NCBI GenBank assembly: GCA_963921275.4
Contig: OZ001293.3
Coordinates: 5,856,001 to 5,920,000, forward strand
Length of the DNA: 64,000 bases
Origin: an uncultured Hormoscilla sp.
Lineage (GTDB): Bacteria > Cyanobacteriota > Cyanobacteriia > Cyanobacteriales > Desertifilaceae
Direction: 5' to 3'
This document shows, piece after piece, positions 24,896 to 63,598 of the stretch. Within the stretch, counting starts at the first letter, position 1. Each line of letters opens with the position of its first letter. The translations under genes were made by a program, and so were the position numbers. The notes under the pieces were generated by a model. The model searched no databases, had not been told where the DNA came from, and saw only the letters and a program-made list of their open reading frames with translations.

Positions 24896-25959
24896 TCAAT
24901 TTTCTATTTCCCGGTTGAACCGGATCATTTCCCACGGTCGCCCGCCATACACCCCTTCGATCTGCTGCTGGCAACAGGCGATCGCGAAGTCGTTTAATTC
25001 TTCCGCTTCAATACCATACAAGTGACCAAACACATCTGCTTGTACCCGACAGAAGCGAGGGGGATCGGGATAGTGCGATTCCTTTAGTGTAAACCGACTT
25101 GACACAAGTCAAGAAGCGGGACCACTAGCAGGGTTCCATTAGCCCTGACAACTTATAGATGATGGTGGTGAAAGTCCACCCCTCCAGGTGCTCTCGTGAC
25201 AGCACTCTCCCGACGGTAGCGATGGCATCAATCCGTAAAGCGGGAATGAAAGGCGCACTGACTGGCAGCCTAAACCGGTTAACGTCGAGCAAGTAGTCAT
25301 GATGAGCGAAAGCAAAGACTCATAAATGTCGTCATTGCTGACCAGCGAAAAGGCTGAGACGCTGGCCCAAAAGGTAAAGGATAATGGCCATTGGCGGATT
25401 GTCCCCCGACCAATAAGCACCGGCAACAAACCCGGCATAAAGAGTCCATCTAATATTATAAGTAGAGAAAACGAAGTCGTAATCCCTACTTATGTATATG
25501 ACTTCTGGTTTTTCGCGCCAGGAGCGTGCGTCTAGTACGCATGATGTTTGTTCAGTAAACCCCATTTACAAGGAGGACAATATATGATATCCGGCTAGGC
25601 CGGGCCACCAACGTTGGCTACTACGTCAAGTCACAAGATAGATGTGTGAATATTCCTATTCACACATCTATCTTATTAGCCGTATCCATGACAAGGATGG
25701 CATTACTGAGGAGCCGGATGAGGTGAAAGTCTCACGTCCGGTTTTGAAGACGAGTCGGGGAGGTGACTCCCTGGCTTAGTTTAATTATCTGACATTCTCT
25801 GGTAGAGTGGTCGAAGTTAACGCACCAGCCATCATCACCCACCAGAGACAGATATAGTTCTAACTCTTCTGGTGATAAATACTCTTCTAGGTCTGGCCGA
25901 TCGGCTGGATCCAGCTGGCAGCAGGCTCCACATTGTTTTACGCAACGCCAAGTTCCCAT
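24896..25959 (-). pseudogene. YkgJ-family cysteine-cluster protein split by an antisense group II intron
   Basis: CVKQCGACC...CQI (25959-25786) joins in frame to YPDPPRFCRV...IACC (25072-24896) when 25073-25785 is removed. Confidence 0.88.
25073..25785 (+). mobile_element. ORF-less group II (IIB-type) intron, deletion derivative of the family at 26626-28998
   Basis: 5' GTGCGATT; domain V GAGCCGGATGAGGTGAAAGTCTCACGTCCGGTTT; 3' GCTTAGTTTAAT; colinear with the RT-coding intron. Confidence 0.92.
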
Positions 25960-26625: not shown

Positions 26626-28998
26626 GTGCGATTCGTTTAGTGTAAACCACCGGCGATCCTGCTGGCGGGACCACTAGCAGGGTTTCATTAGCCCTGACAA
26701 CTTACAGATGATGGTGGTGAAAGTCCACCCCTCCAGGTGCAGGAGTGACAGCACTTCCCCTACGGTAGAGATGGCATCAATCCGTAAAGCGGGGATGAAA
26801 GGCGCTCTAACTGGCAGCCTACACCGGTTATCGCCGAGCAAGTAGCCATGATGAGCATAAAGCGAAGGTTTGCAGCGTCGTGACGAACAACCAGTGAAAT
26901 AAGGCTGACACACTGGCCCAAAAGGGAAAGGATAATGGTCACTGGCGGATATATTCCTGACCAGTAAGCACTGACAATAAACCCGGCGTAAGGAACCCAT
27001 CTAAAGTTACAAATAATCATCGGTAGGAACGAAGTAAACCAGGTATACACTCTCTACCACCGGTCGATAGGTAAAGTAGCCACCAAAGGCGTAACCTCTG
27101 TTTTCATCAGACAGGTCATACCTGGGAAAGATTTCGTGGAGAAGCAAACGCCTGCCCGTAATGAGCAGGATACGCTGACGCCCTCACGGTAATGTCAAAT
27201 GTCAAGCGGTGAGTAGCAAATGATACGTCATAGGCACGGCACTGAGCCGATGAATGAATGGAAGGATATCCCCTGGCGAAAGCTAGAGCGGGTAGTCTTT
27301 AAGCTGCAAAAGCGGATTTACAGAGCGGCACAACGTGGCGATAAGCGAATGGTTCGCAGACTCCAGAGGTTATTGGCAAGCTCCCAGGCCGCAAAAAAGC
27401 TAGCGGTACGTCAGGTAACACAAGATAACCAGGGAAAGAAGACCGCCGGTGTGGACGGTGTGAAAGCACTGACCCCAAAGCAACGATTGGAACTGGTAGG
27501 ACAAATAGGAATCTTGGGAAGGGCAAAACCCGCACGACGGGTATGGATACCTAAACCAGGAAGAACAGAAAAACGTCCATTGGGAATACCAACGATACAT
27601 GACCGCGCGACACAAGGGCTGCTGAAGATAGTACTAGAGCCCGAATGGGAAGCATACTTTGAGTGCAACTCATACGGATTCAGGCCAGGGAGAGGATGCC
27701 ACGACGCGATCGAAGCAATAATCACCAGCATCAACCAAAAACCCAAATGGGTATTAGATGCGGACATTGCGAAATGCTTCGATAGAATCAACCACAGAGC
27801 GCTAATGGAAAAACTGAATACAACATCACCAATCCGTAAACAAATACGGGCATGGCTAAAAGCCGGAGTGATAGACAAAGGATACTGGCACCCCACTGAT
27901 GAGGGCACCCCCCAAGGTGGAGTGATATCGCCATTACTGGCCAACATAGCCTTACACGGGCTTGAGGAAAGGATAATGGAAATGGCAAAAACACAAAGAG
28001 AAAAGCAAAGGTTGACAGTAGTCAGATATGCAGATGACTTTGTGGTAATGCACAACGACAAGGAAAAGGTGGAAGAAGCGCAAAAGGTTGTAGCGGAGTG
28101 GTTAAAGGGGGTTGGACTAGAGCTAAAACCAGAAAAAACCCGAATAAGTCATACGCTATACGGAGAAAAACTGGGGTTCGATTTCCTGGGAATCAACGTA
28201 AGACAATATGAGGTAAGTAAAAACAGAAGCGGGAAAAATCCACACGGTAAAGCCCTAGGTTTCAAAACCTTGACAAGGCCAAGTGACAAGTCCATAAAGA
28301 AGCATAAAGAAAGGCTGTCGGAAGTGATAGCCAGCCATAAAGCGGCACCCCAAGAAGCGCTAATAGGAAAGCTCAACCCAATAATACGGGGATGGGCGAA
28401 TTACTTCAGAACGGGGGCAAGCAAGGAGACCTACTCCGAAATGGACAACTACTTATGGAACACCCTATGGCAGTGGGCAAAAAGAAGACACCCGAACAAA
28501 TCCGGGAACTGGATAGCCAAAAAGTACTGGTTGAACAACCAAGCGAAAGAATGGCGATTCGGGAACGGAGAAATCAAACTAATGAAACACACAAGTGTGA
28601 AAATAGTAAGACATGTAAAGGTGAAAGGAAAAGCGAGCCCATACGACGGGAACCTCACATACTGGAGTACCAGACTAGGCAGAAACCCAGAAATACCTAA
28701 CAGAGTGGCAAAGTTGCTCAAAAGGCAAAAGGGAAAATGCCAGCAATGCGGGCTTACATTTAAGGACGGAGACAAGTGGGAAGTTGACCATGTCAAACCT
28801 CTAACACTAGGAGGCAAAGACCAATACGACAACCTACAACTACTACACAAACATTGCCACAACCGAAAAACTGCCAACGATGGCAGTAATAGCCGTACCC
28901 ATGACAAGGGTGGCGTTACTGAGGAGCCGGATGAGATGAAAGTCTCACGTCCGGTTCTGAAGACGAGTCGGAGGGGTGACTCTCTGGCTTAGTTTAAT
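26626..28998 (+). mobile_element. complete group II intron (chloroplast-like, IIB-type)
   Basis: 5' GTGCGATTCGTTTAG; domain V GAGCCGGATGAGATGAAAGTCTCACGTCCGGTTC; domain VI ends GCTTAGTTTAAT; IEP in domain IV. Confidence 0.95.
27220..28992 (+). CDS. ltrA: group II intron reverse transcriptase/maturase with HNH endonuclease
   Basis: GKKTAGVDG, RPLGIPT, SYGFRPGR, GTPQGGVISPLLANI, YADD, GWANYF, CQQC...VDH..NLQLLHKHCH. Confidence 0.95.
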   Translation: MIRHRHGTEPMNEWKDIPWRKLERVVFKLQKRIYRAAQRGDKRMVRRLQRLLASSQAAKKLAVRQVTQDNQGKKTAGVDGVKALTPKQRLELVGQIGILGRAKPARRVWIPKPGRTEKRPLGIPTIHDRATQGLLKIVLEPEWEAYFECNSYGFRPGRGCHDAIEAIITSINQKPKWVLDADIAKCFDRINHRALMEKLNTTSPIRKQIRAWLKAGVIDKGYWHPTDEGTPQGGVISPLLANIALHGLEERIMEMAKTQREKQRLTVVRYADDFVVMHNDKEKVEEAQKVVAEWLKGVGLELKPEKTRISHTLYGEKLGFDFLGINVRQYEVSKNRSGKNPHGKALGFKTLTRPSDKSIKKHKERLSEVIASHKAAPQEALIGKLNPIIRGWANYFRTGASKETYSEMDNYLWNTLWQWAKRRHPNKSGNWIAKKYWLNNQAKEWRFGNGEIKLMKHTSVKIVRHVKVKGKASPYDGNLTYWSTRLGRNPEIPNRVAKLLKRQKGKCQQCGLTFKDGDKWEVDHVKPLTLGGKDQYDNLQLLHKHCHNRKTANDGSNSRTHDKGGVTEEPDEMKVSRPVLKTSRRGDSLA

Positions 28999-29880: not shown

Positions 29881-32425
29881 TTAGCTGTCACCGGGTAGTC
29901 GGACGCCGATTAATTCGAGTTCGACGCTGCAGTTGCCATTATAATTATTTTCTCGCAGTTTGTAGGCAATGTCAACTTGGGCTGGTAAGGGAAAGTATTC
30001 TCCCCATCGCCAGGCGATCGCCTCTCGGATCTTAGTTCCCAATCCTGTCTCCTGCCCTAAGGTTAACTTCAGATGACTTTTGCTGACAATTTTTTGTTTA
30101 AAGACCCGGACGTTGGAGGTCCAAAATATCGGGGCCGAGTTTTCTATGCCGCAAGGATGCAGGGCATCTATTTGCTGATACAATTCTAGATTAATTTGAT
30201 GAAAGCTGGCTGGGCTGTCAATCTTGACCAAGGGTCTTAAATGTTCGGGTTGCAAGCAGCTGTAAGCAAATTCTCGCAGGCGAGTTTGAAAGGCTTCTAG
30301 ATGTTCGGCCCGCAGAGAAAAGCCCCCCGCTGCTTGGTGTCCGCCATATTTTCCCAATAAATTATCGCAGTATTGTAAAGCCTGAAAGACATGAAATTCC
30401 GGAATTCCTCTGGCAGAACCACGCAAGTGAGAGTCAGTTTCATAGGTGCCGAGAAAGACGGGGACGCCGTAACGTTCTACGAGGCGGGAGGCGACTATCC
30501 CAATTACTCCATGATGCCATTGGGGTTGGACAATGACTAAGACTCTCTCTTGTTGGCAGTTAATTTGGTTCTCGGCACACCAGGCGATCGCCTCCTGTTC
30601 AATTTGGGCGCACATTTCCTGACGCTTCTTGTTCAGTTGTTCGCATTGCCTTGCCCTTTCCCTTGCTATCCCTTTGTCAGTTGTGGTCAGCAGTTCGATC
30701 GCGATCTGGGGGTCCGCCAGACGCCCGACGGCATTGATCCTCGGCCCCAGGCGAAAGCCAATATCTTCGGGTCTTAGGGAGTGCTGCTGATTGACTCCAG
30801 AAACGCCGATTAAGGCTTGCACTCCCGTAAGCTGGGATTGGGATAGATGTTGCAATCCCCGTTTCAGCCAGCGGCGGTTGACTCCTGTTAAGGGCGCTAA
30901 GTCGGCAATGGTTCCGAGGGTGAATAGTTCCAGGGATGTTTTGTATAGTCCGTCCTCTTTTCCTAGCTGCTGGGCTAGTGTTACGGCTAAGATGTAGGCG
31001 ATACCCACTCCCGCTAGTCCCCGATAGGGCGATGCTGCTGATATTAACTTGGGGTTGAGTATGGCATTGGCAGGGGGTAGTTGGGGTGGGATGTCGTGAT
31101 GGTCGGTGATAATTACTTTTATACCAATCTCACGGGCTCTCTGGACGGGTTCGACGGCGCTAATGCCGTTGTCTACTGTTAAAATTAGCTTTACGCCTTG
31201 GGTGTGGAATTCTTCCACAATGCGGTTGTTGATGCCGTAGCCTTCCTTCATGCGGCTGGGTATGGCATAATCTACTCTTGCCCCTAGGTATCTTAAGGCC
31301 CGCAGCAGCAAGGCGGTGCTGGTCATGCCGTCCGCGTCGTAGTCCCCGCAAATGGCGATCGCCTCAGTAGAGGCGATCGCCTCTTGCAGCAGTTCTATAC
31401 TCAAAGCTAAATCTGGGAACTCCTCTAGAGGATGAGGCAACAGGAGTGAGTCGGGGTCGAGCTGGAGATCGCTCTCCAACCCTCCCATTCGGAACCGGAC
31501 ATGCGACTTTCACCGCATCCGGCTACTGGGTAGTAGGCTGTTGTCATCAGTAGAATTACTATGGATTACTCCCGTTGTTCCTCATCTTACACAATTTCGC
31601 CCCTTTATCTTTCGATTCAGCCGACCTCTTAGACAGTTTTGGCCTCTTTCAAAGCCTTCACCCGGGATTGCGGCATTTTTAGGGCTACTTTCAATCTAAG
31701 ACTTCCTACTATCACCGACCCACGTCAGCATATCCGTAAGAGTTACCCCAGGCATTAGCTTCTTGGGCCATCTTTCCCCTCGTGGCTTGCGCTTTACATC
31801 TAACTTGTCCAAATGAGGACAGCTCACGGGAGGTTACTTCGTTCCCTGATATCATTTCACGATACCTTTAGGCTCCTACTCTACCCCGGTAGCTTTTCGA
31901 GTACGATGTTAGTCACAGATTAAAACTAACACTAGCTACATTCCCTTTTGGGCCAGCGTAATAGCCTTATTCCGCTGGTTTTAGTTTACGAGGCTTACAT
32001 AGATTTGCTTGCTCTAGCCTTGGGTATCTTTCCTAGCGGAGTCACCGGCTTAGGCTGCCAGTTATCCTGCATTTGAGTCCTCGCTTGGCACCACGGCGAT
32101 GTTGCTCCGTAGCACTGAGGACCGGTGTCACCCCCGTACCTGGGGGAGGGGAATTTAACCCCCATGATGATCAGAGTTATCTGGCTAATGGAACCAGACC
32201 CGACTTTCACCATTACTGGTTTACGCCGGAACGAATCGCACAATCTGGATCTAAATATACTTTGGCTTCTGCTGGCGTCTGAATGCCGCGATTAATCAGC
32301 ACTTGGGCTAGCAGGGGTGGGAGTCCCGTTGCTTGGGCTAACTGGTGGATCTTGCTTGGCAAGATCGGATATATGTGCCATCGCTGGTTGGGGAGGTGAA
32401 ATGATCTGCTGTCTTTTACATGCAT
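29881..32425 (-). CDS. recJ: single-stranded DNA exonuclease RecJ, two exons (32425-32242 and 31448-29881), 583 aa after splicing
   Basis: Exon 1 ...LLAQVLINRGI...VYLDPD-T plus exon 2 CA-LLLPHPLEEFPDL; GDYDADG, TDHH, GPRINAVGR, GGH motifs. Confidence 0.9.
31449..32241 (-). mobile_element. ORF-less group II intron in recJ (793 nt)
   Basis: 5' GTGCGATTCGTTCCGG; intact domain V; domain VI ends CTCGACCCCGACT; EBS1 AATCTG (31916-31921) pairs with exon end CAGATT. Confidence 0.93.
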
Positions 32426-32628
32426 CGAAGCTTCCTCAAATTTACAGTTTACCACTAATTGCTAATTGCTAATTGTTCATTGCTAATTGCTAATGGACAT
32501 GAATATGAGTTTTTGCTTCCCTAAGGATCCCTCACCCTTTAGGATTCTGTTGGCGAAGGTCGGGGATTACCCCCTGGTCAGCAGCTCCAACTGCTGACCG
32601 CATGAGGTCCTAGACTAGTAAAAGGAGA

Positions 32629-33320
32629 GGCTCTTCTCAATCTAGTATGCTAGATTGAGGCTAAAAGCACCAGGAAAGGAGACTACGCAAGCGAAAATTT
32701 TCCAGATTTCTGAATCCATATCCCTTACGTTTGATTAACTTGAGACGGTTATTTATTCCTGACACAGTCCCTTGAGTTTTCCCCGATTCATTATCACCTA
32801 CAATTTCTCCGAACCATCTAATAATTGTCTTCACACGAGAAAATCCTCTCTTGCCTCTAGGATCCAATCGAGGATTTGTAAGGTAGGATTTTCCGACTTT
32901 TTGGACCTCTCATATATGTAGCTGATCCTCGGTACATTTTTCCCAATTTGGGAATTTTTTCTTGAATTTATTTCAGCTTAATTTCTTATTTTTTTTTTAA
33001 GCTTTCTTAATTTTTATGAGCTTTATTTTTATTTAATACTGATGATATTTATTTTTTTTCTGACTTTAAGTTTTTTAGCTTCATTCTTGATTTGTTTTCG
33101 ACAATTATCTAGCTCTTCATTTACTTGCTTAGTCAGGTGAAAATGGTCAGCTATAACTTCAGTATTAGGCATCAATTCTTCCACTAAACTTTGATACGGT
33201 TTCCACATACTCACTTCTTCAATACCATTCAACACCTCGGGACCCCATGATAGCAAGAATTCTCGCAGATATTCTTGTCGCCGAGACTTCACTATTTCCA
33301 GAAGTTTGATCGCCATACTA
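32629..33320 (-). mobile_element. ISL3-family remnant
   Basis: End GGCTCTT; GINNRLKLIKRKGYGFRNLENFR and VIADHFH fragments. Confidence 0.78.
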
Positions 33321-33520
33321 GGCTCTCTGCTACAAAAGCCTATTGCTGCACCCAAACTTGTCGCAGAATTTCTACCCTATCCAGCCCTTGTAACTTTTGA
33401 GTAGTTGCCCAGTTATAAATAGCCTCTAAAATTAAGTGTCCGTCTGCACCAATGGCTAGGGCTAATTCCTCTTGTTCTTTTTCTCTATGGCTGCGCCACG
33501 CTGCGCGATTGGGTAATCGA
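33321..33520 (-). mobile_element. IS1182-like transposase fragment
   Basis: YRLP...LAIGADGHLIL...VEILRQVWVQQ. Confidence 0.55.
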
Positions 33521-34514
33521 TATTGCATTACGCAAATACATTAGGACATTCTCGAAAGGCAGCATCAATGCAGTCTTGGAAATTCTCAAATTCCTTTATC
33601 CTTTGTTTCATCCAATTCTTGAGAACAAACCACCAATGCTCTCTTTTATTAAGATCGGGAGAAGAGGTTGGTAAGTATAACAGCTCGCATCCAGCCGACT
33701 CAATTAGTTCCCTAACGAATATTGACTTATGAAAACTTGCATTTTCAATAATAACTACATTTCCCTCCTCAAGTTGAGAGATTAAACAGAATTCTACCCA
33801 AAATTCAAATAAATCCTTGTTACAACCTCCACTAAATACTAAAGGAGCAAAGACCTTATCTTCTCTCTGCGCCGCTATCCAACTGACTCTCTCGGTTCGT
33901 TTTCCGGATTTTATTGCGTAAAATCTTTCTCCTCGGATCGCAGTAATCATAGGGGTATTCTTCTCTGTTATCTATTCCTGCGATGTCTCCGGAGAGCGCT
34001 AATCGCACTACTCCTGAGACATCGCCTCATCAACGTATATTCTCTTATTTTTTTCGAGATTATCTAGTTTTCGCAAAAACTCTTGACGTTTTTCTTCATC
34101 TCTTTCCCGATATCCATAGGTCTTTTTTTTTCTGCTTATCCCTAACCAAAGCATGGTTCTACTAATATTTGGTTGCGTAACACAATATGGCCATCTCTTT
34201 TTGAGTTTTATCTCCATGCTCCTTTCTAAACGCACGAAACTTTTCTTGATTGTTGATTTTGGGTTGAGGATCTTTGCGACTGGCTGTTTTAGCCTGAAAA
34301 TTTCCAGTCTCAGCCTCTCTTTTCAACCAAAGGTCCAGAGTCTTCCTGCTAATATTGAGTTTTCGACATATGTTTGTTTTTCGTTCACCTCGTTTATAAG
34401 CTTCGATTGCCTTTTTCCGAAAATCATAGCTGTAAGGGGCCGGCATTATTATTCTCCTCGAATCGGTCTTCTTGTTTTACATTATACGTCCTAAGCTGCT
34501 TTGGTAGTGCTATA
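33521..34514 (-). mobile_element. IS630-family element, degenerate
   Basis: Imperfect TIRs bounded by TA; MPAPYSYDFRKK, YVDEA, NASFH, LYLPTSSPDLN. Confidence 0.85.
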
Positions 34515-34996
34515 TAAGAACTACTTTCTCCTGAGATTTCCTACTATCACCGACCTACGTCTGCGTATCCTAGGCATTACCCCAGACATTTGCTTCTTAG
34601 GCCATGCCTCCCCACCTGGACATACGCTTCACATCTGGTTGGTCCCTAGGGACAGTACCACGGGGGTTACTTCGTTCCCAAACGTCATATCTCGATGTCT
34701 TTAGGTCTCCTCTCTAAGCTGGCAGTTGTTTGTGTACAAAACTAATGAAAGCTAAGCATCAGTCCTAACTGCTTGCACTTTTGTGCCCGGTGTATCAGCC
34801 TTATTTCACCGGTTTTTTCTTACGACCCTTACAAGGATTTGCCTGTTCTAACCATGGACATCTTTCCTAGCGGCGTTACCTCCTCAGGGCTGGAAGCTAT
34901 CCTACATTTACCCTCGCTCAGCACCATGGTGATGTTGCTCCACAGCACCGATTTTTCCGGAACGGTGGGCCAATGTCACCCCTGTACATGGGGGAA

Positions 34997-37755
34997 ATTA
35001 GGGGTCGAGCTGGGAATCGCTCCCCAACCCTCCCATTCGGAACCTAAAGAGCGACTTTCATCGCACACGGCTACTGGGTATCAGGCCCGTTGTCATAGGT
35101 AGCCTTACTGGGGATTACTCCTGTTGGCCCTTACTACTTGTGATTTAGCCCCTTTCCTGGTTAACCAGTAACTCATTCCTCGATTACATTTGTAACGGGC
35201 TTATGATCTTTTGGGTTTACTCTCACCAGTAGTATCCTGATATCACCGACCCGCGTCTGCATATCCTGAGCATTACCCCAGGCTTTAGCTTCTCGGGCCA
35301 TCTCTCCCTTCATGCCTTGCGCTTCACATCTGACTGGTCCAGTAGGACAGAACACGAAGGGTTACTTCGTTCCCTGGTATCATTTCACGATGCCTTTAGG
35401 CCCCTACTTTTCCCCGGCAGTTATTTGGGTACAATGTTAGCCAATTCCCTAACTAACACTAACTGCATTAACTTTTGTTCCAGCGCATTAAGCCTTATTT
35501 CGCTGGTTGGGTTTAACGAGGTTTACATAGGTTCGCCTGTTCTAGCCATGGACATCATCGAGCGCGTCCTCACCGGTAAGGGCTACCAGTTATCCTACAT
35601 TTGAGTTCTCGCTTAGCACCACGACGATGTTATTTCGCAGCACCTCCAACCGGTGTTACCCCCGTACCTGGGGCTATGCCTTACTCACATATTTCTTAAC
35701 AATTGTAGCAACAGTCACGATTGGCAAATATGAGTCTATTGTTTTTTCAATAAAACCTATATATTATCAATAAGCCCGCCATTGAATTGAATATCTGGTG
35801 AAGAGTCAGCTCCTTTTTTGTTTGAGCACAAGTCTTTTGAGTAATTGTACCAGTTCACCACAAGAAATTCTTCTATAAAGTTGTGAACTGGCACGGTTCA
35901 TTCAGTTCTACTTCCGGCGCTCAATTGTCAGATAAGGACCGGACTATTGACGACCGTCCGGGCGAGAGAGCGAATTTACACTTATGGAGTTAAACATACT
36001 TTTTCATATTTTGGGACAGAGGCGAATCTAGAGAATCGCTTGAGCTAGAATTCAAGTATCAGCTATGTCATGCAAGCGTCGTAACCCTTGCCAAATAGTT
36101 TTCACCCCTGGTTCACCATCCCGTTTTCGTCCTAAAAAACCACCTAATTTAGCAATCCAATGAATACAAGTCTTTATTGTTGGCGTCGCCTCTAGTGGTG
36201 TCAAAGTTTTATTTATCGTGCAGTAAAGAGCTTGCTACTCATGGGTTTCTAAAATACTATCTGCTGGGGCCTCCGGGTTGTAACGAGCTTCATAAGTAAG
36301 CCACAATAATCGCCATGCCACGATTGTATAAGTGGCTAAAGCCCTTTCAATGCGATCTGCTGTTTCTAGTTGTAGTTGTTCTTTTCGACAACCACTTTTT
36401 AGGACATAATGATAACGTTCAATTAACCAACGATAGCTATACCAACGCAGGCACCACGTCATCAAAGCCAGTAATCGTCAGCGTCGTTAACAACAACCAG
36501 CTAACCCGGTCAACTCCAGAAGGTGGATGCTCTTCTTCTGCCAGAATTACTTGTATTTTAATTGGCTTTAATGATTTGTAGTGAATATGTGTTTTGGGTG
36601 GTTGAATCTCTACCGAAGTGCTACCCAGGGTTAAGGTTGCTTCGCGAGCCTTTCTCTCGGGATTTTTTGATAATTCTATCGTCACAACTCCTACGGGAGA
36701 AACTTTGTAGATAGCTGATTCTAATTTCTCTACTTCCTCTGAATCAACTGATTTTACAGAACGGTTCTAATAAGCGCGAATTAGAAGCATGCTCTGAATT
36801 CTCAGAGCGAGGCAAGGCCAAAAAATCATAAATATCTGCCTCCCGATCCGCCACTGTCACCACTGTAACATCTGATGGTATCACTGCTTCCGTTGCCGAT
36901 AGCGAGTCCAGCCACCGCTGGCTTTCTTTATCTTTTGTTTCTATGAATCTGTCGAGAATGCTTCTTGCCAATATCAGAAATATCCCGTGCCCTGCTGATT
37001 TAACACTCAAGGGCGGTACTCCTGTCCCACTGGTACAAAAAACCGAGTGAACTTTTAGTTCTCGACTGGTTCTACAATTCCATTTGCCCCATTCCTTTTT
37101 TACTGGGATGGTGCGTAAAATTTAGTTCGGTGGTGTCCTGAATTGCTAAAATCGTTTCATGTTGTTTGACTCGGGAGAGCGTACTTTGTTGGTGGCAATC
37201 GCGAATCGCTTCCGCTTGAATCTGTGGATTTGCCCAAAAGTCATTTGTGCTTGGGTCCCTGCCCAATCTCCACAAGCTTGTGGTACCGTAGCATTGGGTT
37301 GTTCTGCTAAATCTGATACAATTTTTACCAGTATGAATGTGGCGACGGCGATCGCCCAAATCAGCAGATTTTAGTTCTTCTGCGGCCCAAGACTTCATAT
37401 TTTTCTGTCCATGGATAATTTTTGCTCTTCGTGCTCTCTACAATATTAGCAACGCCAGAAGCAAGAGTCGTTTTATTTAATCATTATTTTACTTTTTAGC
37501 ACTGGCGAGGGTTCCGACAGCGCGTAGCGCATTTCGTATCGGACTATATATTAACTTAGTGGAAGTATATTGTTAACTTTTTTGAAGCAATTGTACTCAA
37601 ATCAAGACGGTGTAAGGATTTCAGATTGTTAAGAAATATGTGAGTAAAGCATAGGTACCTGGGGAGGGGGAATTAAACCCCCATGATTACCAGAGTTCCT
37701 AGTTTCCTAGGCCAGCGTTCCGTATATGACTACGTTAGGCTGGAACTCATCGCAC
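34997..37755 (-). mobile_element. inner ORF-less group II intron (768 nt once the IS4 and one TSD copy are removed)
   Basis: 5' GTGCGATGAGTTCC; 3' CTCGACCCCTAAT; EBS1 GGGAAT (35444-35449) pairs with flank ATTCCC. Confidence 0.88.
35674..37654 (-). mobile_element. IS4-family (Tn5/IS50-like) element, fragmented transposase
   Basis: About 30-bp TIR CTATGCYTTACTCACATATTTCTTAACAAT; 10-bp TSD GTACCTGGGG; QDTTEL, KESQRW, ADREADIY, YSYRWLIERYHYVLKSG. Confidence 0.92.
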
Positions 37756-38105
37756 GGGAATCTAACCCTCATAACGTCTGAGTTGTGGGTTGCCCCACCC
37801 GACTTTCCTGATTTCTCAGTTACGCCGGAACGAATCGCACTAACTTCCATAAAATAGCCGGGCGGGAAACTCCTAAAGCCGCTGCTGCTCGACGATAGTC
37901 ATCGGGAACGCTTTGAAACCCTTCTTGGGTAGATCGAATCAAAATCGGGAGTACCATACAGGCGAGGGTTAGCCCTCCTGAAAGAATCGAAAAACCCATC
38001 CCGAGGGTTTTACAAAAGAAGGCATTGCCAAATAATCCGAAGACAATTGAAGGAGTACCGGCTAATAGATTTAGACTCTGACTTACCCACCGCCCGAACC
38101 AACTA

Positions 38106-38684
38106 GACTTCTCCAAAATATAAATTTTGGCTATAATAAACTTTGAAAATTTAATTTAGTGTCAATAAGTATGAGTTTAGATTTAAACTAGACAGTTTCA
38201 ATGTTTCAATTGGTAAATTAACAAATGCTTTTGAGCAGCTAGTTTATAAGCTCAATATTATTGAGCTTCAAAGCGCAAGTCCGTTGGCTGAAAGGCAATC
38301 ACAGTGCGGTATCCCCCCTTTTGTGCGAGTTCGGTATCCCCTGGGTAGTGCGACTAGCGCTCCCAGGGGATACCGAAAGCTCCCGGGGGATACCGCCAAA
38401 GTTTCAGCTTTTTTCATAGCTCTCGCAGGTTAGAAGGGAGTACATCAGGAGTGAGTCAGTTATTGCTCCAAGTTGTAACCGAGAACTAATTTTCGTGTCA
38501 ATTTTAGGCATATTAGAATCTGGGTATTGCTCTGAAAAATTTGAGCTTAATTAATTCTACTTAGGGGCGCTTTTTTAACAGGAAATCCATCAAACCCTTA
38601 TGATTTCGTACAGGTAACATATGTGAGAATGTGAGGTGGGGCTTGAAACTCATAGCTAGCAAGGGTTTCATTCTCGGAGAGGTC
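38106..38684. mobile_element. non-coding MITE in pstA (579 bp)
   Basis: TIR GACYTCTCC bounded by TA; removal rejoins the pstA frame (…KES(S)WFGRW). Confidence 0.75.
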
Positions 38685-38877
38685 TACTTTCTTTCACGGT
38701 AAATTCGGCCAATAAAATTGCCGTCCCCAATCGCTACCGTCATACAAACTCCCAGAATTAATCCCGTTGATACCAGAATGGGGGCAATTCCTCCCCCGCG
38801 ACCGGCTATCGGGTGATAAATTACCAATTTACCAGACTCCATCCCTGCCAGAATATATCGCTCAACAGCCACAATAA

Positions 38878-39113
38878 CCTACATTTTGCACTACAAAATG
38901 TAGGATGTAATGATTACAAGAGCTTGGTGATGAAAGCGAACCTAAAAGCTCATATCCGTATAAATATTTATACGTTATGTTCGACAAATTGCCAGGCGGT
39001 GTCTCCGGAGGGGACACCGATATATTACGTATTACAAAATGTCGTGCAATGGCAATCGTATCGAGTAATTACATATTACTTATCATATTACAATTTGTCG
39101 TACGGAATATGGG
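38878..39113. mobile_element. MITE in pstA (236 bp), IS1634-like ends
   Basis: Imperfect TIR CCTACATTTTGCAC / GTACGGAATATGGG; direct repeat ACAATAA on both sides. Confidence 0.78.
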
Positions 39114-39200
39114 ACAATAATATTCCACTCACTCCCAGGACCACTGCCCAAATTAAACCGGTGGCGATCGCCTCTTTTTGATTAAGCTTAAACCTTACCT

Positions 39201-39380
39201 CAGTCATAAATATGTCCTCGATTTATCACTTCGGCGATCGCCACCAGCAGCAGCACCATTGCCATTAATATCAGACCGCTGACAAATAAAGCCCCCTGAT
39301 GATTTCCCATAGCATATGCCATTTCTAGAGCAATATTTGCCGTCAAGGTCCGCACCGGTGCAAAAATATTGTTAGGGATT
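39201..39380 (-). pseudogene. pstC: PstC permease C-terminal remnant
   Basis: APVRTLTANIALEMAYAMGNHQGALFVSGLIL; stop overlaps the pstA start. Confidence 0.75.
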
Positions 39381-39437
39381 TTCCGTTTGAAAAGACTTGT
39401 CTAGTTTGCGATCGGCGCAAAGTTTTTGAATGAAAAC

Positions 39438-39551
39438 GGCGTTGCACTTCGGACGGGATGATAGACATAGTTGCAAATAGTTTTAAACCTAGACTACAAG
39501 CGACTTTCAGTTATGTGCAAAAAGAGTATCATCCCCAAAATGTGCAACGCC
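39438..39551. mobile_element. MITE, about 115 bp
   Basis: TIR GGCGTTGCAC...GGGATGA / TCATCCC...GTGCAACGCC; GAAAA(C) on both flanks. Confidence 0.65.
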
Positions 39552-39980
39552 TGGAAAACGTCTGATGGAGCTGACGACCATGAGATCCTTGCAGTTTAAG
39601 GATTTCTCCTTTTTGAGTATGATTTTGAGTATTTTGAATATGACGAAGACCTGAGAAATTATACTTATCTTGCCGCCGCGCAGATCTAGGCGATACGCCG
39701 AGCATAGAGGGAGCTAAGTACATACGCGCAGTTGCAGTACGTCACTTTTCAGTATCTAGAGTATATAAAGGGTCATAACCAGCGATCACTATCGTCACCT
39801 CGCAGCTGCTCGCCTCAGCACTGGCTTCACCTCATGCCCGATCGCCTTCGCCACCATGTTGCACTCTTCAGGTGTACAGAGTTGCTGTGTCCCTTGACAG
39901 GCATGAGACGATAGTATCTCATGACGTACAGCTGGTTGCTGTGTCTGGGGAACGGTACTTTTTTCTTCTGTGGGTAGCTA

Positions 39981-40877
39981 GGGCGTGTCATCAGTTAAGC
40001 CAAACAACAGTAGCAGCCAGGTAGATAGCACCCAAGAAATTCTGAGCCCTCTTATCGTAACGGGTGGCAATGGCTCGATATTGCTTGAGTTTGGCAAAAA
40101 AATTCTCAATCAAATGACGTGCTTTGTATAGATATTTGTCATAACGGCGTTGTTCTTTTCGATTGGATTTAGGCGGAATCACAGGTTCGCATTGCTGGGC
40201 TTCAAGACGTTTCAAAACCCGTTCGTCAGCATCAGAAGCTTTGTCTGCGAGTAACGCATCAGCCTTAATATTATCAAGTAACACATCAGCCCCTTCCAAA
40301 TCGTGAGCTTGACCGGCTGTTAAATGAAAACCCGTTGGGTTCCCCAATGCGTCACAGGTCGCGTGAATTTTGGTACTCAAACCCCCTTTACGGCGTCCGA
40401 TGGCTTGGTCGCAATCTTTTTTTTTTGAGCACCTGCACTATGTTGATGAGCCCTTTATATCGTGGCATCAATCATCGCATATTCGTTATCGGCATCGGAC
40501 GCAAGTACCTTGAATACTCTTTCCCATACCCCGGATTTTGACCACCTACTATGGCGCGTATGAATTACCCTCAAGTCCCCAAATCGCTCGGGTAAGTCCC
40601 GCCAAGGTATCCCAGCTCTATATCGATACAAGACAGCATAGACAAATAAGCGGTTATCCTTAGCTGTCCCCCCCACATAACCCTCCCGACCTGGCAATAG
40701 GTCCCTGATTCTCTCTCACTGGTCATCTCTTAAAGCATAGCGACGCATTTCTCAAATTCTCCTGCTCTAACCTTTACCCTCTTAGATCACACCAATATAT
40801 CCTGGTTGTCAACTCAATCATCTGGTTATATATTTTTGGTGGGGACCCATATCGTTAATCTAACTGATGACACGCCC
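39981..40877 (-). mobile_element. IS5-family element, copy 2
   Basis: 897 bp, nearly identical to 1788-2684; extra nonsense codon in orfA. Confidence 0.92.
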
Positions 40878-40998
40878 TAGCTAGGTTTACCAACGATGTA
40901 AAGTTCTGACTTGCTACGGGTTAATGCTACGTACAGCAAGTTGTCTTCCTGCTCTTCCTGCCAAGGCTTGATGTTTCGCCAAGACATAGGCATGTCCC

Positions 40999-41126
40999 CA
41001 GGGCAAACGCATCTTATTTTTGAAACGCTTACAGGACAAGGGTTTGAGCATCTAGAGTATTTATACTTATATAATTCCAGAATGCTTACTGGGAAAGGCT
41101 TCCAGGATTTAGATGCGTTTTCCCTG
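40999..41126. mobile_element. ISAs1-type MITE (128 bp)
   Basis: TIR CAGGGMAAACGCATCT; 10-bp TSD GGCATGTCCC. Confidence 0.85.
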
Positions 41127-41863
41127 GGCATGTCCCCAGTCTTGTACAGGAAAATGCCATCGGCCTCCAATCCCTTGGCCCGATGGCACGTACATTTGCT
41201 CAATTCCAACTGGACAGCATTTAAGTCTTGGCATTCATCGACTAAGACGAACTCATAGGAATTGAAAGATCTATTTAGTCTTAACTCCCATTTGACGGGA
41301 AGCCATATCATGTCGGTAAAGTCAAAGCTTCTCTTGCGATTCGCCAAACCTTCTCCCACGGACAAGACAGAGGCGACCGCCTCGGCTACACGGCCAAAAT
41401 CCCAAATATCAGCAAGCTCACTCCGGACTGCAAATGCTCATCACTGAATACTCCGTCGGCTTTAAGTTAGTCAACCTGACAAGGTCTACCAACTTAAAGA
41501 AGTCCCCAGCCTTGTCTAGAGCCCCTTCAAGTTCAGCGAGTTGGCCACGGACTATCAACCCCAAGTTTTTGCTAATGTCTTTGTACTTGCTTGAATCGAG
41601 CAAGCTCCTGGGATTTCGGATCGACAGATGGGAGCGTAGTAACGACCACCCGGCGATGTCTCCTGTGTGCCGTTCGCTTCGCGTGGCGCAGCCATGTCCC
41701 CTGGGACAAGAGCACAAAGGAGATATCGAAGCTGTGAAGAGTGCTGATGCTCTTGGTCCACTGTGGACCCAAGCTAGAGATTAACTGATTCGCGTTGGCT
41801 TTCCCGAATACAATAATCTTAATGTTGCGGGGCTTAATGCCATCAGCCTCTAAAGCTTGGGCT

Positions 41864-42766
41864 GGTCGGGGTCGAGCTGTCCCTCACGGGACAACCCTCC
41901 CATTCGGAACCTGAAGAGCGACTTTCACCGCACACGGCTACTGGTTGATAAGCTGTTGTCATAAGCAGGATTACTCTGGGTTACCCCCTTTGTCCCTCGT
42001 CCCATGAAATTTTGCCCCTTATGGTCAGTCGATGAACCGTTAACTACCTAACTCCGGAAGGTTTGCGGGGGTGAACCAGTAAACCATTAAGTTTGCTCTT
42101 TACTTACATCTCCCCTGTATTTGGGGCCCTGAGTTTTTACCCGGTTAGGATTTAATCCACCATTAATCCCTAGGATTTCTCCTGGTTTATTACATTCAAA
42201 AGCTACTTTTTCCCAGAACATCTTACCATATCCGTCCGACGTCAGCTTATCCACAGGTATTACCCTGGGCTTTTGCTTCTTAGGACATCCCTCCCCTCGT
42301 GGCTTGCGTTTTACATCTAACTGGTCCAAATGAGGACAGCCCACAAGAGGTTACTTCGTTCCCTGGTATCATTTCACGATGCTTTTAGGTTCCTACTATC
42401 CTCCGGGAGTTCTTCGAGCACGATGCTAGCCAGATGATACAACTAGCACTAACTACCATTTCCCTTTTGGGCCAGCGTATTAGCCTTATTCCGCTGGTTT
42501 AAAGTAACGAAGTTTACACAGGTTCGCTTGTTCTAACCATGAGCATCTAACAAGCGCGGTGTCACCGGCTTAGGCTGCCAGCTATCCTACATTTAAGTCC
42601 TTGCTTCGCACCACAGCGATGTGACTCTATAGCACTAAGGACCGGTAGTACCCTCGACCCCCGTAGCTGAGGAGAGGGAATTTAACCCCCATGATAACCA
42701 GAGTTTCTGGCAAATGAAACCAGACAGACTTTCACCGTTACCGATTTACGCCTGAACGAATCGCAC
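41864..42766 (-). mobile_element. ORF-less group II intron in the helicase gene (903 nt)
   Basis: 5' GTGCGATTCGTTCAGG; 3' CTCGACCCCGACC; removal gives LKM-V-AQALEADG; EBS1 ATCATC pairs with exon end GATGGT. Confidence 0.9.
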
Positions 42767-53565: not shown

Positions 53566-53837
53566 TCCCAATGAAATAGCCCTGGGGTCTCATAGTCCAA
53601 AGAACTGTTAGTTAGCAGTTGGTCCCCTACTATGGTGAAGGCGTTGTTGCCGGAGACTAACTGGTAAGTAAAGGGATCTCCCAGGTTGGGGTCGGCCCAA
53701 GCCTGCCAGAAAGTCCCCACGAATACGACAATGCTGCTGTTACTGAGCTCTAGGTCGGTAGGAGAGGAGTGCTCTGAAAATCGCTCACGTAAATCTTTGA
53801 AATCCCCTGCAGGGTAGCCAGGGTTTCCCCTTCAAAA

Positions 53838-56297
53838 TTAATCATAGACGATCGTCAAATCTTCGAAACTCAAACCTCCTGCTAGCTCGATCTTGTCCGT
53901 ACCCTCTTGAAAGCCTATGATAATATCCCGGCCCATGTCCGGCTCCAGAACAAAAATATTGGCCTCTGATCCTTCGTAGAGGCGATCGTTTCCATTTCCG
54001 CCGATGAGAAAGTCGTTCCCATTTCCGCCGTAGAGGCGATCGTTTCCATTTCCGCCGATGAGAAAGTCGTTCCCATTTCCTCCGTAGAGGCGATCGTTTC
54101 CATCTCCACCAATAAAACAGTCGTCCCCCTCCTCTCCGTAGAGGCGATCGTTTCCATCTCCGCCGATGAGAAAGTCGTTCTCATTTTCTCCGTAGAGGCG
54201 ATCGTTTCCGCCGATGAGAGTCTCGTCCCCTTCTTTCCCCTGTAGCCAGTCATTCTGACCATCCTGACAGACAATCTTCAAGACATCCGAAACATCGTTG
54301 ACGTTAATAGTAAAGACCTCCGAGTAACTGGCCCCAGCAGCGTCGATAGTTTGGACGCAGATGCTGTAACTCGACTTGGTCTCAAAGTCTAAAGAACTGT
54401 TAATTAGCAGTTGGTCCCCTGCTATGGTGAAGGCGTCGTTATCATCGTCACCAACGCCTGAGACTAACTGGTAGGTAAAGGTATCTCCAACGTCGGGGTC
54501 GCTAGTTCCGAAAGTCCCCACTACAGTATTGACTGGGGAGTTCTCATTGATGCTGCTGTTGCTAAGAAACAGGTCGGTAGGAGAGGAGTTCAATGCTTCA
54601 TCCTTGACGTTAATAGTAAAGACCTCCGAGTAACTGGCCCCAGCAGCGTCGATAGTTTGGACGCGGATGCTGTAACTCGATTTGGTCTCAAAGTCCAAAG
54701 AACTGTTAATTAGCAGTCGGTTCTCTTCTATGGTGAAGGCGTCGTTATCGTCGCCACCAATGCCGGAAACTAACTGGTAGGTAAAGCTATCTCCTGAGTC
54801 GGGGTCGGTAGTGGAGAAAGTCCCCACGCGGCTACCCAATGCGGAGTTTTCATTAATACTGCTGTTGCTGAGTTCGAGGTCGGTAGGAGAGGAGTTCTCT
54901 ACAACATCGTTCACTTGAATCGTGAAGGCCTCCGAGTAACTGGCCCCAGCAGCGTCGGTAGTCTGGACGCGGATGCTGTAACTCGATTTGGTCTCAAAGT
55001 CCAAAGAACTGTTAATTAGCAGTCGGTTCTCTTCTATGGTGAAGGCGTCGTTATCATCGGCACCAACGCCGGAGACTAACTGGTAGGTAAAGCTATCTCC
55101 TGAGTCGGGGTCGGTAGTGGAGAAAGTCCCCACGCGGCTACCCAATGCGGAGTTTTCATTAATACTGCTGTTGCTGAGTTCGAGGTCGGTAGGAGAGGAG
55201 TTCTCTACAACATCGTTCACTTGAATCGTGAAGGCCTCCGAGTAACTGGCCCCAGCAGCGTCGGTAGTCTGGACGCGGATGCTGTAACTCGATTTGGTTT
55301 CAAAGTCCAAAGAACTGTTAATTAGCAGTCGGTTCTCTTCTATGGTAAAGGCGTCGTTATCGTCGCCACCAACACCGGAGACTAACTGGTAGGTAAAGCT
55401 ATCTCCTGAGTCGGGGTCGGTAGTGGAGAAAGTCCCCACGACTGCACCCTCAGCGGAGTTTTCATTAATACTGCTGTTGCTGAGTTCGAGGTCGGTAGGA
55501 GACTCGGCAACATCGTTGACGTTAATAGTCAAGGTCTCCGAGTAACTGTTATTAGTAGAGTCGGTAGTCTGGACGCGGATGCTGTAACTCGATTTGGTCT
55601 CAAAGTCCAAGGAACTGTTAGTTAGCAGTGAGTTCCCTTCTATGGTGAAGGCGTCGTTATCATTGACACCAGCGCCTGAGACTAACTGGTAGGTAAAGGA
55701 ATCTCCACTGTCGGGGTCGGTAGTGGAGAAAGTCCCCACGACTGCACCCTCAGCGGAGTTTTCATTAATACTGCTGTTGCTGAGTTCGAGGTCGGTAGGA
55801 GACTCGGCAACATCGTTGACGTTAATAGTCAAGGTCTCCGAGTAACTGTTCCTAGCAGAGTCGGTAGTCTGGACGCGGATGCTGTAACTCGATTTGGTCT
55901 CAAAGTCCGGGGAAATTTTAATTAGCAGTTGGTCCCCTACTATGGTGAAGGCGGCGTTATCATAGTCAAGAGCATCGTCACCAAGGATGGAGACTAACTG
56001 GTAGGTAAAGGTATCTCCAACGTCGGGGTCGGTAGTGGAGAAAGTTCCCACGACAGTATTGACTGGGGAGTTTTCATCGATGCTGCTGTTGCTGAGTTCG
56101 AGGTCGGTAGGAGGGGAGTTCTCTACAACAATGTCAAAGGTATCTCCCCTTCGATTTCCCGCTTGGTCGATGGCGGTTACCGTTACGGTAAAGATGCCTC
56201 CGGTAGCAGGGATACCGCTGATAACTCCCTGAGAGTTGATGGTTAAGCCCTCTGGTAAACCGGTAGCTGTGTAGTTATTGATGTTGTCAGCTAATAA
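53838..56297 (-). pseudogene. 5'-truncated cadherin-repeat / RTX calcium-binding surface protein
   Basis: Frame open upstream of 56051 (He_PIG-like [13 protein letters not shown]) with no start; six cadherin-like repeats (PTDLEL...LDFETK); GGxGNDxL nonapeptides; extra cadherin fragment at 53575-53770. Confidence 0.82.
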
Positions 56298-57842: not shown

Positions 57843-59021
57843 ATGACCTTAAAACATATAAAGATTATCGGGCATCGTGGAGCCAGTGGCTACCTGCCCG
57901 AAAATACCCTAGCTGCTTTTTCTTTAGCGATCGAGATGGGTGCTAACGCGATCGAACTCGACATTGTCCCCACAAAAGAGAGGGAATTAATAGCCCGTCA
58001 CGAAAACGACATCACCCACACTACCAATATATCACATCTGACTGAATTTAGCGATCGCCTGACCGTCAAAAGCATCAACGGCCAAGAAATAACAGGCTGG
58101 TTTACAGAAGATTTCACTTTAGCAGAAATCAAAACCCTCACAGCGAAAGCACCTCCCGATCGCCAACTTGGGTACAATTTAAAGCCTGCGCAGGCAGGCT
58201 TTGTAACTGTAGCCCCACCCTTTAGGGTTGGGGCTCCCGATCGCCAACTTGGGTACAATTTAAAGCCTGCGCAGGCAGGCTTTGTAACTGTAGCCCCACC
58301 CTTTAGGGTTGGGGCTCCCGATCGCCAACTTGGGTACAATTTAAAGCCTGCGCAGGCAGGCTTTGTAACTGTAGCCCCACCCTTTAGGGTTGGGGCGGCG
58401 GCGGTGGGGGCGGAGGTGGGGGCGGTAGTGCCGACATTACAGGAAGTTATCGATCTAGTCAAGCATCAAAGGACAGCTGCCGGGCGGGCGATCGGGCTTT
58501 ACATAGAAATCAAGCATTCTACCTATTTTAGAACAATGGGGCTGCCAATCGAAGAGCCTTTAGTAGAAATATTGGAAAAGAATGGATACAGGACAGCGGA
58601 TGCCCCGATTTTTCGCGCAGCGATCGCGATCGAATCCTTTGAAAGCGAGAGCCTCAAACACCTGCATCAACTTACCCAAGTACCTCTCGTGCAGCTGCGC
58701 CAGGACTTGACATCAGCATCAGAATTAGCTAATATAGCCGAGTATGCTGTAGGATTAGCAGCCTACAAACGTTTAATTGTCCCCACTGACGAACGGGGAC
58801 ATCTGTTAGCGCCTACCTCATTAATTCAGGATGCCCATCAAGTTAATCTAAAGGTGTATAGCTGGACATTTAGAAATGAAAAAATCTATCTCGCCCCCGA
58901 GTACAAAGGTAACCCACAAGCAGAATACGAGCAATTCCTGCTCTTAGGATTAGATGGAGTGTTTAGCGACTTCCCAGATACCGCAGTCTCAGTGCGCGAT
59001 CGGTTCCATCCTTCGCAGTAA
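57843..59021 (+). CDS. glpQ: glycerophosphodiester phosphodiesterase with an in-frame 3 x 27-aa insertion
   Basis: IIGHRGASGYLPENT, IELD, YIEIK, DGVFSDFP. Confidence 0.85.
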   Translation: MTLKHIKIIGHRGASGYLPENTLAAFSLAIEMGANAIELDIVPTKERELIARHENDITHTTNISHLTEFSDRLTVKSINGQEITGWFTEDFTLAEIKTLTAKAPPDRQLGYNLKPAQAGFVTVAPPFRVGAPDRQLGYNLKPAQAGFVTVAPPFRVGAPDRQLGYNLKPAQAGFVTVAPPFRVGAAAVGAEVGAVVPTLQEVIDLVKHQRTAAGRAIGLYIEIKHSTYFRTMGLPIEEPLVEILEKNGYRTADAPIFRAAIAIESFESESLKHLHQLTQVPLVQLRQDLTSASELANIAEYAVGLAAYKRLIVPTDERGHLLAPTSLIQDAHQVNLKVYSWTFRNEKIYLAPEYKGNPQAEYEQFLLLGLDGVFSDFPDTAVSVRDRFHPSQ

Positions 59022-62996: not shown

Positions 62997-63214
62997 TGGT
63001 AATCTTGATTATTATATTTCTCGTTCCCAGTCTCTGGCTGGGAACGGCCTATGGCTGCGCCACGCTGCGCGATGGGGAGGCTCTGCCTCCAGCTTTTATA
63101 ATTATAGCTGCTATAATTATATTCGTCCAGCAACCTCGCTCTGCCCGACAATCTGCCAAGGGCCGATCGGGGGACAGGTGCAGGTAAGATAAAAGGAAGT
63201 TGTTATGACAAAGA

Positions 63215-63598
63215 GGACCAGTCAGATGTGAAGCGCAAGCTACGAGCGGGAAAGATGGCCCAAGAAGCTAAAGCCTAGGGTAATGCCTAGGATACGCCGA
63301 CGTGGGTCGGTGATAGTAGGAAGTCTTGGGTAAAAGTAGCTCTAAACGCTATAAGCCCATCGCCAGAGGTGATGAGGAATGGGCGGTGTCTTCCGCATGC
63401 TCTTGTCCTGAAGGACAAGAGCATGCGGAAGACGCCGGGTGAAAAGGAGCCAAATTACATGAGACAAGGGACAAGGGGAGTAATCCCGAAGTTACCTGCC
63501 CATGACAAGGGCCTATTACCCAGTAGCCTCCTGCGGTAAAGAGAGTCCGGTTCCGCTCTTGGAGGGTCGGGAGGCGACAATGCGGCTCGGGCCCGACT
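63215..63598 (+). mobile_element. 5'-truncated relic of the ORF-less group II intron family
   Basis: Shares AAAGATGGCCCAAGAAGCTAA, GACGTGGGTCGGTGATAGTAGGAAGTCTT and ATGACAA..CCCAGTAGCC with the recJ intron; decayed domains V/VI ending CCCGACT. Confidence 0.8.

Follow-up and report, generated by a model that had tools for sequence, protein, structure and literature searches.

How does a group II intron that encodes no protein reach new sites, and what selects each site? The question is raised by a 64,000-nt stretch of contig OZ001293.3 from an uncultured Hormoscilla sp. (hereafter the window, within which all coordinates are positions unless prefixed C1 or with a G-label). In it the original prediction had placed four related introns lacking an open reading frame (ORF), in recJ, in a helicase gene and, one inside the other, in pstA, together with a relic, each intron carrying a different guide hexamer. 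We find that they belong to a protein-free group IIB lineage of 340-400 members, here called family A, whose guides match their insertion sites, and we hold with good confidence that this lineage likely splices and retrohomes with the reverse transcriptases (RTs) of a second family of introns in the same genome, family B.

A protein-free intron family in hundreds of copies

An iterated domain V/VI profile search of the genome returned 504 domain V (D5)/domain VI (D6) matches, all on contig C1, which by their 3' ends comprise 397 of family A, 86 of family B and 21 others; a strict family-A pattern gave 340 matches. The 412 elements with paired ends amount to 448,503 bp, at least 6.5% of the chromosome; this figure counts nested insertion sequences (ISs) and leaves out unpaired fragments. 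Full-length family-A introns (650-1010 nt, n = 316) share one scaffold and form 55 clusters at 95% identity, the five largest having 143, 72, 16, 8 and 5 copies. The family has spread in bursts to more than 100 sites: cluster 0 is a recent one, with 67 of its 143 copies equal to the consensus and the 143 copies lying at 124 distinct sites. In clusters 0 and 1, copies depart from the consensus chiefly by G>A and C>T substitutions, and tandem GG>AA and CC>TT changes turn up repeatedly, as is typical of UV damage. A nested child is present in 38 of the 504 elements, and a self-targeting sub-lineage gives rise to twintrons (introns within introns), 13 of its 14 starts, the inner intron of the window included, following the scaffold's own domain I target.

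Family A contains no RT. Its longest stop-free stretch is 123 codons, no RT overlaps any of the 19 over-long elements, and no RT-coding member was found genome-wide in the 6.9-Mb contig, nor at the locus at 5173 kb, where a family-A copy follows an unrelated RT fragment. Out of 93 RT C-terminal matches, 85 lie directly before a family-B end and 5 before other types, the remaining 3 being 1.8-66 kb from a family-A end, and tblastn detected an RT remnant in 1 of the 55 family-A representatives.

Guide loops covary with the insertion sites

Across the 55 representatives we scanned blindly every pair of alignment column (at least 70% occupied) and flank position (-20 to +5), which makes 20,050 pairs. 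The top 13 pairs link six consecutive columns to positions -1 to -6 (exon-binding site 1, EBS1), five to -9 to -13 (EBS2), one to +1 (EBS3) and one to -14, the last column sitting two bases before EBS2 (EBS2a). Excess pairing was 0.31-0.58 in these 13, with the next value at 0.21 (standard deviation 0.034). When the flanks were permuted 2000 times, using the 50 representatives (of 55) whose guides are free of gaps, EBS1 formed 4.36 of 6 Watson-Crick pairs versus 1.68 ± 0.17 in the permuted sets, EBS2 3.64 of 5 versus 1.54, EBS2a 0.74 versus 0.34 (maximum 0.54) and EBS3 0.84 versus 0.35, and 0 of 2000 permutations reached the observed pairing for any of the four. The original prediction would have fallen had genome-wide copies matched their flanks no better than chance; they do so far above it.

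Because the guide columns had been picked on the same data as were scored, an independent check was needed. In ten complete copies from other genomes (nine further 3' ends were dropped, their 5' ends lying beyond reach), EBS1 pairs at 5 of 6 positions or more in 10/10, EBS2 at 4 of 5 or more in 9/10, EBS3 in 9/10 and EBS2a in 6/10, and none of the ten shares its EBS1 and EBS2 pair with this genome. Blind covariation, permutation and the outside set together indicate that the exon recognition of subgroup IIB is present, by pairing of EBS1, EBS2 and EBS3 with the respective intron-binding sites (IBS1, IBS2 and IBS3). Among 310 of the 316 copies we counted 45 EBS1 and 49 combined EBS1 and EBS2 sequences; together with the lack of any RT, the 45 EBS1 types bear out the predicted non-autonomous lineage of constant scaffold and variable guides.

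Upon folding, 40 of 50 representatives left at least 5 of the 6 bases of the EBS1 hexamer unpaired. For the last intron base, covariation is strongest with the purine that precedes GA in the joiner of domains II and III (0.91 versus 0.49, with other columns close behind), as would be expected for the gamma-gamma' pairing; for delta-delta', the column chosen consists mostly of gaps. The EBS2a geometry of mobile IIB1 and IIB2 introns (two bases before EBS2, then an A, pairing with -14) is found in family A. The passages of PMC8643678 devoted to EBS2a-IBS2a describe it as essential for mobility, dispensable for splicing and stabilised by the RT, and as undetected in organellar ORF-less introns while kept in the trans-mobilised ones of Thermosynechococcus. 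Its presence in family A thus argues for RT-driven insertion into DNA.

Family B as the probable source of reverse transcriptase

We observe 93 RVT_1 matches in the genome and 42 RT-like ORFs of at least 400 aa, 19 of which are full-length family-B RTs, so that ORF-less family A and these 19 RTs reside in one genome. The family-A profile aligns colinearly to domains I-IV (D1-D4) of 33/33 full-length B RNAs at 65-111 bits, with the other RT intron types tried reaching at most 47 bits, and family A keeps an ATGACAA tract that in B encodes the RT C-terminal HDK. The colinear alignment and the tract indicate that family A descends from a B-like ancestor, and an old one. This agrees with the earlier placing of the window RT in a related but distinct family sharing ATGACAA; the same prediction had noted this RT (27220-28992) as the only one in the window and missed a further, ORF-less family-B intron close by (25073-25785). 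A few more ORF-less forms of family B occur elsewhere in the genome. A domain IV motif, RAGTAR, picked by eye and without a control, occurs in 36/43 A and 20/21 B sequences.

Next, we asked which RTs could have served family A. RT residue 173 correlates with target base -15, Ser or Ala going with A and Glu with G, as set out in the section of PMC8643678 on this residue. We located it in family-B RTs through alignment to 6ME0, the PDB entry that the window RT matches best (E 2.5e-109); in the window RT, the residue corresponding to Th.e.I3 position 173 is Glu. Ala173 RTs lie, for example, at C1:4097676 and C1:2406679, and a Gly173 RT at C1:4777196. Within family B, G-15 is found at 12/17 unique sites with Glu173 versus 1/30 for other residues, and A-15 at 20/26 sites with Ala or Gly173 (p about 1e-6, overstated as relatives are not independent). 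The same split is seen at family-A targets: cluster 0 has A at 84 and G at 2 of 117 sites and cluster 1 has A at 38 and G at 2 of 58, whereas the smaller clusters have G at 45, A at 41 and T at 6 of 92. A purine occupies -15 at 90/96 sites of the smaller A clusters and 28/33 B sites. We infer from this that family A has drawn on both RT classes: Ala/Gly173 RTs likely drove the two bursts (143 and 72 copies) as well as the window's insertions in recJ, the helicase gene and pstA, and Glu173 RTs likely served the G-15 lineages. As the target base is A-15 for the recJ, helicase and pstA introns, and G-15 for the inner intron, the Glu173 RT of the window is unlikely to have driven the three at A-15.

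Trans-mobilisation, which, like splicing, we infer for family A, draws support from the retention of EBS2a pairing and from the purine at -15. In the proposed mechanism, the intron RNA would bind a family-B RT in trans, likely via domain IV, and would be spliced out as a lariat; the complex would find its DNA site by guide pairing and by the RT reading the purine at -15, and the intron would then reverse-splice into the site and be copied to DNA. With point changes in its guide loops, an intron would gain access to new sets of targets.

Alternatively, family A may have been mobilised by an RT-coding member of its own, now lost or absent from the assembly, with B not the donor. The distance in sequence between A and B, an assembly rated 96.7% complete and the presence of a few other RT intron types in the genome leave some room for this. 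Near-identical copies at 124 distinct sites speak of recent activity, yet no RT-coding A member was found in the contig, and 0 of 12 named-genome loci have an RT inside an A element, among the matches listed. Furthermore, base -15 at family-A targets is divided between A and G just as B's RTs impose, and the other RT types tried score no higher than 47 bits against the A profile. We consider a lost RT of family A's own unlikely, and take supply by family B forward.

As a separate observation, an Ala173 family-B intron with an antisense cluster-0 copy at RT codon 463 (G000:C1:1056960-1061068 and relatives) occurs at 8 or more sites, and most composites of this kind also hold a cluster-1 copy in domain I. 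Although its endonuclease domain is cut, the Ala173 composite seems to have moved together with the copies that it carries.

The introns of the window

The predicted coordinates and 3' ends of the window introns hold (Table 1). All four begin GTGCG and are 66-77% identical in pairwise comparison over aligned columns, so that the single scaffold proposed for them stands; the relic belongs to family A too. Each hexamer pairs 6/6 with its own upstream flank when G-U is allowed, as had been claimed. The claim that the hexamers occupy the same stem-loop survives for recJ, helicase and pstA, where local folds put them in a hairpin loop, but not fully for the inner intron, whose minimum free energy (MFE) structure pairs part of the hexamer. 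Similarly, of the three introns described as complete at about 770-900 nt, the recJ and helicase copies agree, and the inner intron comes to ~770 nt only after its IS is taken out. The suggested group II model search, with Rfam RF00029, matched the recJ copy (46.4 bits) and no other family-A element of the window, because the D5 of the helicase and inner introns is mispaired; no Rfam model matches domains I-IV of family A in the window. The recJ intron is the only canonical one of the four.

Table 1. Coordinates of introns, guide elements and associated features in the window
Feature	Position	Strand	Remarks
recJ intron, family A, complete, ORF-less group IIB	31449..32241	(-)	793 nt
recJ-intron EBS1	31916..31921	(-)	pairs -1..-6; from blind covariation and window mapping
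recJ-intron EBS2a and EBS2	31981..31987	(-)	EBS2a 31987, pairs -14; EBS2 31985-31981, pairs -9..-13; from covariation, guide scores and mapping
recJ-intron EBS3	31881..31881	(-)	G, pairs +1 C; from covariation and mapping
recJ 3' exon	29881..31448	(-)	TIGR00644, 479 bits, above cut-off
Helicase intron, full-length family A	41864..42766	(-)	903 nt; in fragmented UvrD-type helicase gene
Outer intron, 5' part	37756..37840	(-)	inserted in pstA-like pseudogene
Inner twintron intron	34997..37755	(-)	EBS1 GGGAAT 6/6, EBS2 AACCC 5/5; at nt 85 of outer intron
Insertion sequence in inner intron	35674..37654	(-)	1981 nt; 30-bp inverted ends; 10-bp target duplication
Outer intron, remainder	~34516..34996	(-)	EBS1 TAGCTT 6/6, EBS2 4/5
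Family A relic, 5'-truncated (D2-D6)	63205..63598	(+)	D5 decayed, domain I lost, no branch A
Family B intron, RT-bearing	26626..28998	(+)	ORF 27220-28992: RVT_N, RVT_1, GIIM, HNH
Family B ORF-less deletion derivative (not family A)	25073..25785	(+)	713 nt; RT C-terminal remnant

The recJ intron terminates in CCCCGACT, has a canonical D5, pairs through EBS1 (AATCTG) at 6/6 and EBS2 at 4/5 positions, has EBS2a and EBS3 paired, and sits at an A-15 target. An intron-free allele, CCAGATT/CACTCC, is present in 4/4 congeners searched and fixes the 793-nt boundaries, confirming those predicted; precise removal of the intron restores the reading frame, with a spliced ORF of 71+522 aa. The recJ 3' exon is 98-99% identical to the intron-free alleles of three congeners and 89% to the fourth, and recJ has a paralogue at 32% identity in the genome. 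Extra stem-loops 5' of the domain I basal loop, mostly two, are an IIB2 feature (in the description of this subgroup in PMC8643678), and stem-loops of this type are present in the recJ intron fold, with two hairpins at about nt 13-62 in both the MFE and the centroid structure of the one copy folded. A relative of the recJ intron (92% identity) lies downstream of dnaN in congener G003 and differs at EBS2 (ACTAA to CCGTA), EBS2a (A to G) and the first EBS1 base (A to C), changes which fit the dnaN-side site. In family A, the distance of the candidate branch A from the 3' end is 9 nt (A-CCCC-GACT, e.g. 31449-31457), one more than in family B (A-GTTT-AAT). There is no RNA dataset among the public holders listed for the recJ region.

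The helicase intron pairs 6/6 through EBS1 and has a mispaired D5 of the TCTTCA variant with AGC kept; an empty helicase allele was sought in the congeners and not found. The inner intron likewise keeps AGC in a mispaired D5 (TCTTTA). The IS that it carries has no Pfam hit, and we take it to be IS4-like. For the outer intron, the empty pstA allele in 3/3 congeners gives the 5' junction and a C at +1 that pairs with the G of EBS3; most of domain IV (D4) and all of D5-D6 are gone, the intron being cut in early D4 by a DDE_3 element (~33521-34516), presumably of IS630 type. The pstA 3' exon was not found in the genome, and the pstA-like copy looks dead there. The pst region upstream of the twintron (38100-39300) has two further insertions relative to the congeners and is frameshifted. 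Many short repeated elements occur inside the helicase and pst remnants. Elsewhere in the window, two DDE_Tnp_1 insertion sequences (1785-2687 and 39978-40880) are 99.7% identical, and tandem repeats comprise ~300-bp units in a 737-aa ORF (53586-56130), an 81-bp triplication (58153-58396) and a 106-bp duplication (63727-63941).

Host genes interrupted by family A

We examined the genes hit by top-level family-A insertions (n = 299). Removal of the intron restores a sense ORF of at least 150 aa in 80 cases, an antisense one in 50 and both in 8, as compared to 33% per strand for random positions; both orientations are below this background, antisense more so. Within long ORFs, sense insertions outnumber antisense ones (72 versus 42, p = 0.006), an excess expected if splicing rescues some insertions. 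The interrupted genes include eno, prfC, gltB, zwf, an ectB-like gene and metH (six of eight loci outside the window could be named). No second copy of eno, prfC or zwf exists in the genome at E below 1e-30, and the introns in these three genes (junctions at C1:1800238-1801136 in eno, C1:2134479-2135329 in prfC and C1:6446752-6447684 in zwf) have canonical D5 and good guides. The eno, prfC, zwf and recJ genes would have to have their introns spliced out in order to work.

Mispaired domain V and other contrary evidence

Several observations weigh against a splicing family mobilised by B. D5 is abnormal in 33 of 314 full-length copies (13/55 clusters), the helicase intron included and the inner intron likewise. 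The EBS2 of the helicase intron pairs at only 1/5 positions, and EBS2a pairs in 61% of all copies, besides the 6/10 of the outside set. The kinship of A and B is distant, the recJ intron matching B only in ~40-nt blastn pieces. The residue-173 rule comes from a published correlation rather than from an experiment, the sites of any one lineage are not independent of each other, and the Glu173 intron of the window itself sits at a site with C-15. In congener G002 (6 contigs) the balance is the reverse of this genome, with 99 RT matches and only 5 strict family-A matches, so that RT supply alone leaves the burst unexplained and the burst is lineage-specific.

Upon examining the abnormal D5 further, we find that all 16 copies of cluster 2, at 13 sites, carry it, and that the TCTTCA form is also found in congener G004. 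D5 state shows no link with sense insertion in genes (8/31 mispaired versus 64/236 canonical). The same multi-base replacements recur in unrelated clusters, namely CTCTTCA/CTCTTTA in D5 (window 41905-41940 and 35040-35075, minus strand), TAAAGAG, the reverse complement, in a deleted D5, GCTCTTGG after D5, and TTCC replacing the GAAA loop. This recurrence suggests that copies exchange modules or that a templated process patches them.

The mispaired D5 of 33 copies would also suit a spread at the DNA level, by duplication, gene conversion or carriage in ISs or family-B introns, with the ribozymes largely dead. Some copies do ride in family-B introns or in repeated genes (the 143 cluster-0 copies lie at 124 sites), and 11/11 family-B elements of ~3.27 kb hold an antisense cluster-0 copy. 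Carriage of this kind is set against boundaries that are base-exact relative to empty alleles, flanks that vary between copies while matching the guides, retention of the mobility-specific EBS2a pair and single-copy genes split by copies with canonical D5, and we regard it as a very improbable account of the family. Retrohoming of family A with family-B RTs remains our preferred explanation.

Distribution and assembly checks

Full-length matches are confined to the genus, occurring in 4/4 congeners; in 56 further genomes from this family and order, all matches were short. Strict family-A counts are 0, 5, 10 and 47 in G001-G004, three of which are fragmented assemblies, versus 340 here. Named records with the family-A pattern are Hormoscilla in 12/12 cases, among the matches listed; the genus is characterised in PMC6520454, in the part that describes the organism, as an uncultured sponge symbiont. 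Separately assembled public contigs span the recJ 3' junction (3/4 runs, at least 31 letters) and both eno junctions (X2) with no differences, and in runs of the same organism label neither gene shows an empty-allele joint. These bridged junctions argue against misassembly, though the contigs may come from the source sample. That the copy number and gene interruptions are artefacts of assembly or polishing, as the far lower counts in fragmented congeners and the possible identity of the best public holders with the source sample might suggest, is largely refuted already and has in our view almost no chance of being true, since separately assembled contigs bridge the junctions and unique flanks with matching guides cannot arise by misassembly.

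We found no splicing evidence in public contigs X1-X4 for the window or X2, X4 and X5 for eno. The one eno joint, in X5, was considered as a splicing product and rejected, because the strain is diverged and the joint looks like an empty allele. Separately, contig C3 of the genome (31 kb) has 17.6% GC versus 47% for the genome and is likely foreign to this organism.

Implications

An open step in the origin of spliceosomal introns is how group II introns multiplied and came to rely on a common splicing apparatus that acts in trans. In the standard bacterial model there are 28 introns; the genome described here has ~500, with recent bursts and split core genes. Its hundreds of natural guide-target pairs form a dataset for targeting rules (EBS2a, and RT residue 173 versus base -15), offer a testable assignment of RTs to the ORF-less lineages that they serve, and provide a pool of compact natural targetron scaffolds. 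A bolder and, in our estimate, unlikely proposal is that family A is an RNA-only parasite resembling short interspersed elements (SINEs), long parted from its RT donors, that it has made the symbiont dependent on a shared maturase pool for the splicing of core genes, and that D5-mispaired sub-lineages, one of which still spread to 13 sites, splice and move with a catalytic D5 borrowed in trans from other intron RNAs, which would place them half-way to a spliceosome.

Comparison with known systems

No published report of this intron swarm was found, nor any paper pairing Hormoscilla with intron, subscription papers lying outside the scope of the search; the word intron is absent from the genus genome papers checked. 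The review PMC4424553, where it treats bacterial ORF-less introns, calls them rare.

The basic mechanism is already known from Thermosynechococcus elongatus, whose TeI3/TeI4 introns (28 introns in six EBS families) were shown by assay to be mobilised in trans, according to the experimental account in PMC2882425. As in TeI3/TeI4 (IIB1), ORF-less copies here outnumber RT-bearing ones, EBSs diverge to new sites, twintrons form, and A-15 and EBS2a are kept. ORF-less TeI3 introns are described there as 85-100% identical to RT-bearing ones, arising by simple ORF deletion with clear remnants, and few lie inside genes; such near-identity to an RT-bearing intron is not found in family A. This genome further differs in its 504 D5 matches and 45 EBS1 types, in a distant ORF-less lineage with remodelled domain IV, in the IIB2-type 5' hairpins and in having at least 72 insertions in sense orientation within long ORFs.

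Trichodesmium erythraeum is similar in having ORF-less introns in protein genes with trans-encoded maturases, as well as twintrons, and the general maturase of its dnaN/RIR system is outlined in the summary given by PMC12584367. It differs in that 17 splicing introns are documented, 10 of them ORF-less, with no burst of hundreds and no guide diversity on the present scale reported in the portions of PMC4649490 that deal with these introns. Arthrospira platensis, like the organism studied here, is a filamentous cyanobacterium with an expansion of chloroplast-like (CL-type) introns, for which counts of 101 (as stated in PMC8919778) and at least 150 (as cited in PMC4649490) are given, the highest for any bacterium that our literature search turned up; the 504 D5/D6 matches here are 3-5 times more, and about four in five come from one ORF-less family. 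Relative to these systems, this genome is new in its scale and guide diversity, in how far family A stands from the RT donors, in an RT footprint that can be read at the target sites and in the mobile lineages with mispaired D5.

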